Below, one piece after another: positions 37,501 through 40,500 of a DNA stretch of 64,000 bases. The stretch's first letter is position 1; every line of letters starts with the position of its first letter. Location: NCBI RefSeq assembly GCF_057098645.1, contig NZ_CM169472.1, one strand, 5' to 3'. Made by a program: the position numbers.

Positions 37501-40500
37501 CCCGATATCATCGCTGTAACTGATGCCGCCGACCACATCCACCACGTTGAAGCCCATCGGCGTGGTGCCGATATCCCAGCTCCAGACGTCATTTCGCCAG
37601 CCGACCGCCACGCTGGCACCGGAATCCGACTGGCTGCGGTTGCCGCTACAGTCCTGTAATGTACAGGTGCCCCAGTTATCATCCCATTTACCATCGGCAT
37701 TAGTGGAGAAACTGCCGACGTTCATATTGACGAAATCACTGCGAAAGAACATCCGCCCGTCAGAATACGGCGCATCCACCTGCAACATGGTAGTGTGCGC
37801 TTTCAGATCGGAGTAACCACCGGTGCCGCTCGAACCCCAATAATCATGCTCAAGGGTGACGTTAAGATCCTGCTGGCGATAGAGGTCCGCCGCATCGCTG
37901 CGCACGCCGCGTTTCAGCCAGTCATCTTTCTTGTCGTTACGGGTCAGTCGGGTAAAGGTGTCGTTATCCTGCGGACGCGTCGTAGTCACACCGGATGCGA
38001 CCATGGCGTCTTTGTAGGTTTCCAGCGCCTGCTTTGGATCGCCCGCCTGCGCTTCAAACTTCGCACCGTCGCGCAGCACCATCGCGCTTTCCATCGACGG
38101 TGGCTGAGATTTTGCCTGCGGGATCAACTTATTAAACGTCTGCTGCGCCACTGCGGTATCGCCAAGCTGCGCCTGTGCCAGCGCCACGCGCCGCTGTGTG
38201 TTCAGCGAGGCGTTATCGGTAGCGGGCAGTTTCGCCAGCTGGCTACGTGCCGCCGCTTTGTCACCGGCAGCAATATCCACTTCCGTCAGACCAAGAATGG
38301 CATCGGCGTTAGTTGGCTCCCGCGTCAGGACATTCTGATACGCAGCGCGGGCGGCGGTGTAATCACGTCGTTGTTGCGCCCAGTCAGCCAGCGTGAGGTC
38401 AATACGCGAGGAAGGCGGTTGCTGGTGCAGCATCGCTTCCGCTTCTGCCTCTTTGCCGCTTTCTCGCAGGCGATTAGCGGTTTCCAGCACCTGATCGCTT
38501 TGCAGTCGATTAACCAGCTCCTGAATATTGCTGCTCCACTGCGCACGCGGCAGGCTGTTGATATGCGCCAGCGCCGCTCTGTCCTGGTCATGACCAGAGA
38601 GGTACAGCCCGTAAGCGTAAACCTGCTCCGGGTCGTTCGGCTTCTGCTGCGCCAGATTGCGCATTAACGTATCGGCCTGGCTGCGTTGTCCGGCCTGCCA
38701 GAGATCCTGCGAAAGTCGGTAAGTAATCCATATGCTGCCGGGGTCCAGCGCCAGTCGTTGCCGCTGAAGTGCTGCCGCCTGCGCCCATTTGCCCTGGTTT
38801 TCCAGTGCCTCTGCCTGCTGTGCCAGACGGTCGTTTTGCAGGCTGCGTTCGATATCATCAATGCTACGCCGCTGACTGGCAGAGAGTGAGGCGATAAACG
38901 CTTCAGCTTTTTCTGGCGATTGCTGGCGGTAAATATTTGCCAGCCCGCGCACGGCGTTAGTGTTGCCGCTGTCCATACGCAAGGTCTGCTGATAATAACG
39001 TTCGGCGGCGGGATAATCTTTTCGCGCCATCGCCACATCGCCCAGCCCCAGCACTGCATAACTGTCGGTGTTATCGACATTACGCGCCTGCTGGAACAGG
39101 CGTTCTGCCCGGTCAGGATTATTGGCTTTCAGCGCAGCATCGCCCTGCTGGATTGCCAGCCAGTAGCGGTTTACTTTCAGCAGACTGTTCCATTTGTCGT
39201 TGTTGCTGCTGTGCGGGTCCAGTGCGAGGGCTTTTTCCAGATTCGCCACTGCATTGGCGCGATCGCCTTTCTGTGAATATGCCTGGCCCAGCGCCCCCAG
39301 AGCCTCACTGTCTTTCGGGTTCGCCCGCACTGCCTGTTGTAGTTCGGGAATGGCTTTACCCGCCATACCAGAGTCCACCGCCGCTAAACCTTGCGCACGA
39401 GCGCGGAAAGCAGGATCGGCCAGCTGTTTTTTCTGTTCTGCCAGTTGCGATTGCGCAGCCGCCACGCTATCGCCATCACTAAAGATCGAAAGATATTTTT
39501 TCAGCGCCGACACACTGGCATCACTGACGGGCATGTCTTTAATCTGCCCGTACCAGATTTTAGAGGCCCCTTCGCGCCCGGCGTTCGATTTCGCCATCTG
39601 TTCCAGGACGGCAAAACCTTCGTCACGGCGATCGCTACTAAACAGCAATAGCGCCAGATTGTTTTGCAGGCCCGTATTGCCCGGTGCATCCGCATTGATG
39701 CGTTTTAACTGATTAATCGCTTCGCCACGGCGAGCCGGAATTTTCGCCACCGTACTCCAGTACTCGACAGCAATGTCACCTTCCGGCGGCGCACCGTTGA
39801 ACAGTTTGTTGTAACTCGCCACAGCTTCTTCCGCATGACCGGTAGTCGCCTGCAATCTTGCCTGTTGCAGTGCCTGACGACCATCCGGCGTGGAAAGTAG
39901 CATCGTAGTCCGCGACGATTTATACGCATTTGAACTCGGCGCTAACTGCGACAGCCGATCGAGCTGTTTTTGCGCGCCATCAATATCGCCCTGACGTAAC
40001 AAAGAACGGAAACGGGCGGCAACGACGTCCGGGTTATTCGGATCAATAAGTTCCAGCCGATACAACGACTGCTGTACCAGGTCTTCACGATGGGTCGCTT
40101 CGCCTAACCGAACTTGCTCCAGCAACTGTTGCTGAGCGGTTGGTGCTGCCTCGACCATCGGCATGACGGCCAGACCGAGGGAAAGCGTGAATATGTTTAG
40201 TGTGAATTTGCGCATTCCTGGCCCCAGTCAGGTAATAACTCACCTTTTGTCGAGAAGCGGAAACGGTGTTGATCCCAGCCTTGTCCAAACAGGGTCAGCA
40301 CATAGTTGTAATAGGCATCGCTGCCGGGAAAGTTATCGGCCACGCGCTGGCGCTGAACGGCCTGCGCATCGCGGTTTTGTAAAAAGGGCAGCATGGCGGC
40401 AGAAAAACCGACTGGTCCTTTACCCTGCCCTTTCCCCGTAGCCACATCCACTTTTTCCGGCGGATAACCGTTTTTCTCAGTGAATGTCGCCATCGGTTTA

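Follow-up and report, generated by a model that had tools for sequence, protein, structure and literature searches.

The start/stop overlaps described here are best read as ordinary features of the bcsRQABZC, bcsEFG, dppABCDF and chuTWXYUV operons, at which a terminating ribosome would be able to reinitiate on the downstream gene, and we put the probability of this reading at roughly 0.85. The 19-nt overlap between bcsZ and bcsC is a real and ordinary overlap that has already been annotated and published. The junctions lie in a 64,000-nt stretch of Escherichia coli chromosome (hereafter, the window) of the O145:H28 lineage, which showed 99.9-100% identity in megablast searches of complete E. 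coli genomes and to which annotation was transferred from the RefSeq O145:H28 strain RM12761 and from K-12 MG1655. Its genes are arranged in the following order:

chuA' (the 5' part; the window begins inside chuA), chuTWXYUV
yhiD-hdeBA, hdeD, gadE, mdtEF, gadW, gadX and a gadA remnant
ccp, treF, yhjB, rcdB, yhjD, yhjE, yhjG, pdeH, kdgK, yhjJ, dctA and hmsP/pdeK
bcsC-Z-B-A-Q' on the minus strand and bcsE'-F-G on the plus strand
ldrD/rdlD, yhjV, dppFDCBA, proK, eptB and lpfEDC

Rfam matches above the gathering score were also recorded along the window:

1155-1186, minus strand, shuA/chuA 5'-UTR thermoregulator
10858-10929, plus strand, ES205 sRNA
16708-16821, plus strand, GadY
49611-49676, plus strand, rdlD antitoxin RNA
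57593-57673, plus strand, naRNA4
57769-57842, minus strand, tRNA-Pro (proK)

The ldrD gene (49455-49562) adjoins the rdlD antitoxin RNA. Elsewhere in the window, gadA (18027-18640) has lost 787 bp from its interior, and with them its reading frame, by comparison with the closest O145:H28 genomes; the junction lies at 18250-18255 in a TACAGG microhomology. This junction was found in one piece in none of the complete RefSeq E. coli genomes, and the deletion is either strain-specific or an assembly collapse with the gadB paralogue. In yhjB (22344-22955), the stop codon has changed from TGA to CGA (G at 22355, as opposed to A in the reference), extending the ORF by three codons to 203 aa, versus 200.

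A preliminary description of the window had claimed eight start/stop overlaps. Six are exactly as claimed (bcsZ/bcsC, dppD/dppF, chuU/chuV, bcsE/bcsF, bcsF/bcsG and bcsQ/bcsA), while chuX/chuY differs in size and lpfC/lpfD does not overlap from its annotated start. The genes and junctions concerned are as follows:

36742-40215, minus strand, bcsC
40197-41303, minus strand, bcsZ
40197-40215, minus strand, bcsZ/bcsC overlap of 19 nt, with the last six codons and TAA of bcsZ and the first six codons of bcsC
46269-46272, minus strand, stop of the bcsQ remnant and start of bcsA, ATGA (-4); K-12 agrees
52340-52343, minus strand, dppD stop and dppF start, ATGA (-4); K-12 agrees
6280-6283, plus strand, chuU stop and chuV start, ATGA (-4)
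4615-4617 and 4617-4619, plus strand, chuX stop and chuY ATG, respectively, in gccTGATGAcg; TGATG, 1-nt overlap
47501-47504, plus strand, stop of the bcsE remnant and start of bcsF, ATGA (-4); K-12 agrees
47689-47692, plus strand, bcsF stop and bcsG start, ATGA (-4); K-12 agrees
61471-61484, minus strand, lpfC-lpfD spacer of 14 nt, gcAAGGAGagcgaa, from the lpfC stop (61485-61487) to the annotated lpfD ATG (61470)

Stop and start codons share bases at dppD/dppF, chuU/chuV, bcsQ'/bcsA, bcsE'/bcsF, bcsF/bcsG and chuX/chuY, and not at bcsZ/bcsC (-19) or lpfC/lpfD (+14). For chuX/chuY, an ATGA overlap had been proposed. The junction does contain ATGA, but chuX stops at a different TGA, and the actual overlap is the single nucleotide of TGATG; finding ATGA where two genes meet is not enough to define an overlap. 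The ChuY structures are based on the same 207-aa ORF. The bcsE/bcsF junction (47501-47506, tcATGATGacc) offers two adjacent starts, at -4 (ATGA) or -1 (TGATG), and the 63-aa BcsF form beginning MMTIS… is that found in the cryo-EM entries.

That some of the overlaps are artefacts of start choice, with the true start lying elsewhere, proves correct for the usher/adhesin pair lpfC/lpfD and is, as a general account, very improbable. A 10-nt lpfC/lpfD overlap (61485-61494) exists only if lpfD begins at the longest-ORF TTG at 61494, which is without a Shine-Dalgarno sequence. The annotated ATG lies 24 nt downstream of this TTG and 14 nt past the lpfC stop, opens a typical signal peptide (MKAAIALSLLGC), and is preceded within the spacer by a strong AAGGAG (-8.5 kcal/mol). 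A collection of 15 billion proteins has the 351-aa ATG form of LpfD from at least 1000 contigs and contains no copy of the 359-aa TTG form. An overlap is therefore not evidence for a start where a better ribosome-binding site (RBS) lies just downstream, as at lpfD. The risk of misplaced starts is a general one, as seen in mdtE (11079-12236): in the O145 reference, RefSeq begins the gene at the equivalent of window position 11127 (MLTACDD…), which removes the lipoprotein signal peptide, so pipeline starts are not always right. The mdtE ATG at 11079 yields a 385-aa form, MNRRRKLLIPLLFCGAMLTAC…, which we take to be the length of K-12 MdtE.

Against the same account, the other seven junctions use either the first in-frame ATG or, for chuV, the start with the best Shine-Dalgarno sequence, and they match the K-12 or RefSeq annotation. 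The chuV ORF has longer alternative starts (TTG at -153, the longest ORF, position 6127; GTG at -30), but the overlapping ATG has a strong GGAGGA 4 nt upstream (-9.5 kcal/mol), and the resulting 256-aa ChuV is present on at least 1000 contigs in the 15-billion-protein collection. It had been suggested that the overlaps help to validate corrected starts over longest-ORF calls, which holds for chuV only; of the seven real overlaps, the other six use an ATG that is already the first in-frame start, and the lpfD overlap was itself created by a longest-ORF call. Consequently, the overlaps add little to start-site validation. The proposed check against curated annotation (RefSeq O145:H28 and K-12 MG1655) gave agreement at seven junctions, with the annotated lpfD start giving no overlap. 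The overlaps confirm the soundness of the window's gene calls.

Separately, the 90%-identity cluster to which the 351-aa LpfD belongs is represented by an 857-aa LpfC and also contains O157:H7 LpfC fragments of 367 and 220 aa; genomes in which lpfC and lpfD were called as fused or split genes may account for this odd mixture. A split lpfC is reported for O157:H7. In the window such a split was ruled out, since lpfC has an uninterrupted reading frame of 838 codons as far as the edge of the window.

The description of the overlaps as ordinary stood up well. Among 30 same-strand neighbour pairs in the window there are seven overlaps, and eight pairs (27%) lie within -8 to +6 nt. In E. coli as a whole, 707 of 2,987 unidirectional pairs (24%) fall within the same range (PMC10666635), so the window shows a normal density with no excess, and the overlaps are normal operon architecture. 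The commonest spacing in E. coli is -4, followed by -1 and -8, and subunits of heteromeric complexes are overrepresented among pairs spaced at -4 or -1 (PMC10666635). The operon layout and short spacers also fit single transcripts, with the caveat that the divergent promoter region of the bcs operons is deleted in this strain.

In the proposed mechanism, a ribosome terminating at one of the five ATGA pairs or the single TGATG pair would already sit on the downstream start and could reinitiate there, aided to varying degrees by an internal Shine-Dalgarno sequence. Reinitiation of this kind would tend to tie together the amounts made of proteins that work as partners (DppD/DppF, ChuU/ChuV and BcsE/BcsF, for example). 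Translational coupling at the -4 and -1 pairs is plausible by analogy with experimental work: four of five native E. coli -4 pairs were coupled, and tightly so, in reporter tests (PMC6728339), and coupling is most efficient from -4 to +3, dropping faster with overlap than with spacing (PMC12548453). The six -4/-1 pairs lie within the efficient range (about -8 to +6 nt), and bcsZ/bcsC (-19) lies outside it. No report of coupling at any of the listed pairs was found in the literature searched, and the TRAINSPOTTER supplements hold no dpp or bcs entries. Proteome data place the mass fractions of DppD and DppF close to 1:1 across conditions (Mori et al., PMC8144880 supplement), an indirect pointer to coupling at that pair.

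A possible, though rather unlikely, alternative accepts the overlaps as real and holds that downstream translation is independent, through fresh 30S initiation at each gene's own RBS, the overlap being no more than a neutral side effect of operon compactness. With three of its four bases supplied by a start codon, ATGA evolves readily, a point also made in a review (PMC12548453). The Shine-Dalgarno sequences of dppF (GGGAGG, 7 nt upstream and within dppD; -10.3 kcal/mol) and chuV are strong, and no start region is significantly structured or masked: the accessibility of 16 short junctions was unremarkable, with |z| >= 2 at none. Thus dppF and chuV could initiate independently. Furthermore, bioBF, the remaining one of the five -4 pairs tested, was found to initiate de novo (PMC6728339). 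For BcsE and BcsF, which are direct partners, a construct with a stop after BcsE residue 217 gave the same results as one keeping the native bcsF RBS (PMC7439463), which hints that, on an overexpression plasmid at least, ribosomes need not arrive at the bcsE stop for bcsF to be made. On the other side stand the tight coupling of most native -4 pairs noted above, the enrichment of short overlaps among complex subunits (PMC10666635), and the weak Shine-Dalgarno sequences of bcsF (-5.6 kcal/mol) and bcsG (-3.1 kcal/mol), which would make poor stand-alone sites.

The bcsZ/bcsC pair differs in its geometry. The overlap (…ccaggaATGcgcaaattcacacTAA) is read in two different frames, as the end of BcsZ (…E C A N S H, then the stop) and as the start of BcsC (M R K F T L), and it is identical in the RefSeq O145:H28 and K-12 MG1655 annotations. 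No in-frame start precedes its ATG in the bcsC ORF, and this ATG, 19 nt before the bcsZ stop, is the only start from which the BcsC signal peptide is obtained; the next ATGs, at +51 and +57, would drop it. Together with the matching annotations, these features indicate that the overlap is real and the bcsC start sound. The bcsC RBS is weak or atypical, with GGGG located 5-8 nt upstream (the count of the spacing varies) and AGGA abutting the AUG. A 19-bp overlap of bcsZ and bcsC has already been stated for the bcsABZC operon of Salmonella Typhimurium (Ahmad et al. 2016, PMC5070118), where a polar bcsZ mutant is equivalent to a bcsC mutant.

At this junction, a terminating ribosome would come to rest 16 nt beyond the AUG and would have to scan backwards, which is expected to be inefficient. 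On that basis, bcsC probably depends mostly on fresh initiation at its weak RBS, with bcsZ translation contributing modestly at most. In one spacing series, coupling was absent at -25 (PMC12548453), and given the steep loss with longer overlap, strong coupling is less likely at bcsZ/bcsC than at any other pair in the set. The protein data also count against coupling here: BcsZ is a tetramer of which only the activity is needed, and there is one BcsC per BcsA-BcsB6 complex (PMC11379886), so BcsZ and BcsC are not an obligate 1:1 pair. In the K-12 proteome, BcsZ is essentially undetected and BcsC is near the detection limit (Mori et al., PMC8144880).

The overlap is nonetheless old. A scan for BcsZ relatives, using one genome per species, returned 79 loci, and bcsC follows bcsZ in 76 of them. 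The exact 19-nt overlap is present in 74 of these 76 Enterobacteriaceae species loci, from Escherichia to Klebsiella, Kluyvera and Mangrovibacter (BcsZ identity 58%), showing that the layout has been retained since the common ancestor of the family and further arguing against an artefact at the bcsC start. The exceptions are an Enterobacter genome with a 13-nt overlap, ATGCGCAAGTTAA (locus L037, 3529-3541), and a Citrobacter koseri NCTC assembly (L078) with frameshifts through bcsZ-bcsC. Calculated by hand from the column values, entropy per column comes to about 0.27 bits for the overlap, 0.34 bits for the preceding 19 nt, and 0.66 and 0.96 bits for the flanks. In all 71 distinct sequences, bcsC codon 6 is CTA, TTA or GTA, and codon 7 always begins with A, so that the bcsZ TAA is preserved. 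Since NTA accounts for 14.6% of the Leu and Val codons in the window's genes, its invariance at codon 6 points to selection on the embedded TAA. Loss of the bcsZ stop would lengthen BcsZ by 30 residues, and the conservation therefore reflects selection on the stop and not necessarily on coupling; it could merely prevent this extension rather than serve coupling.

Such conservation could reflect a selected mechanism for setting the ratio of BcsZ to BcsC synthesis, via inefficient backward reinitiation or ribosome occlusion, but we consider this improbable; alternatively, the 19-nt overlap may simply follow passively from dual coding. Were BcsC output tuned by the conserved spacing of -19, this would make a modest addition to what is known of cellulose-secretion assembly. 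A negative role, in which ribosomes ending bcsZ would cover the bcsC start and so hold BcsC to the low level needed, seems quite improbable. To judge from the geometry of the sequence, a ribosome footprint would span the bcsC AUG over the last six bcsZ codons, and the single BcsC of each secretion complex (PMC11379886) and the strictly conserved overlap length are in keeping with occlusion, but dual coding and the need to end BcsZ explain the conservation equally well. The non-polar Salmonella mutant is uninformative in this regard, its expression coming from an added tetA promoter (PMC5070118).

Coupling by RNA unfolding, in which a structure would hide the bcsC start until bcsZ-translating ribosomes opened it, is likewise hard to credit. 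The predicted unpaired probability of bcsC positions -15 to +5 is somewhat low (0.34, versus 0.53 +/- 0.12 in shuffles), but the 130-nt region around the junction folds no better than shuffled sequences (z = 0.04), and RNAalifold, run on 74 bcsZ/bcsC sequences, gave a weak consensus of -5.27 kcal/mol in which a single pair has a compensatory change. Moreover, a small CCUG/CAGG stem is broken in Enterobacter-type sequences by CCG-for-CCT changes in a Pro codon. Ordinary overlap, with reinitiation at the -4 and -1 pairs and probably largely fresh initiation at bcsC, remains the preferred reading.

In the strain itself, the bcs overlaps would be inherited architecture and probably unused, given what has been lost from the locus:

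46709-46722, strand not assigned, deletion junction with 1,561 bp absent relative to K-12, at a shared CGCTCAG microhomology

The deletion took bcsR whole, together with the divergent promoter region, 299 nt from the 5' end of bcsQ and 776 nt from that of bcsE, leaving bcsQ and bcsE 5'-truncated, and both remnants are pseudogenes in RefSeq. The identical junction occurs in 26 of 5,426 complete E. coli genomes, all of O145:H28/NM type, and is therefore a clonal marker; two further genomes have different deletions in the same bcs area. A promoter search at the junction gave one weak match versus 1.4 expected, and none better than chance. The deletion probably abolishes cellulose production, and the whole bcs locus may be silent in this strain; neither cellulose loss nor a bcs deletion in O145:H28 was found reported in the literature searched. 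With the promoter region and 5' parts gone, the bcsQ/bcsA and bcsE/bcsF overlaps are relics here, and overlaps beside pseudogenes say nothing on current expression. Within the same locus, one copy of a tandem GATGGC repeat in bcsB (about 43286-43297) has been lost in frame, giving a BcsB of 777 aa (…TPSLL…) where K-12 and the O145 references have 779 aa (…TPSPSLL…), a change that looks like slippage.

Three known systems bear comparison with these junctions. The first is the Salmonella Typhimurium bcsABZC operon, which has the same genes, the same 19-nt overlap and the same ATG…TAA layout, although it belongs to another species and the operon in the window is without its promoter region, bcsR and the 5' part of bcsQ. 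The coat-lysis overlaps of phages fr (-38) and MS2 (-50) resemble bcsZ/bcsC in that the downstream start lies well before the upstream stop, so that either ribosome backtracking or RNA opening is required; they differ in being backed by experiment and in that MS2 has a defined inhibitory hairpin, whereas bcsZ/bcsC has no detectable structure. Finally, the ATGA/TGATG pairs coupled by termination-reinitiation share with dppD/dppF, chuU/chuV, chuX/chuY, bcsQ/bcsA, bcsE/bcsF and bcsF/bcsG their spacing motifs, co-directional genes within operons, internal Shine-Dalgarno sequences of variable strength and, often, partner subunits as products; coupling is a measured property of the reference pairs and an analogy for those in the window.
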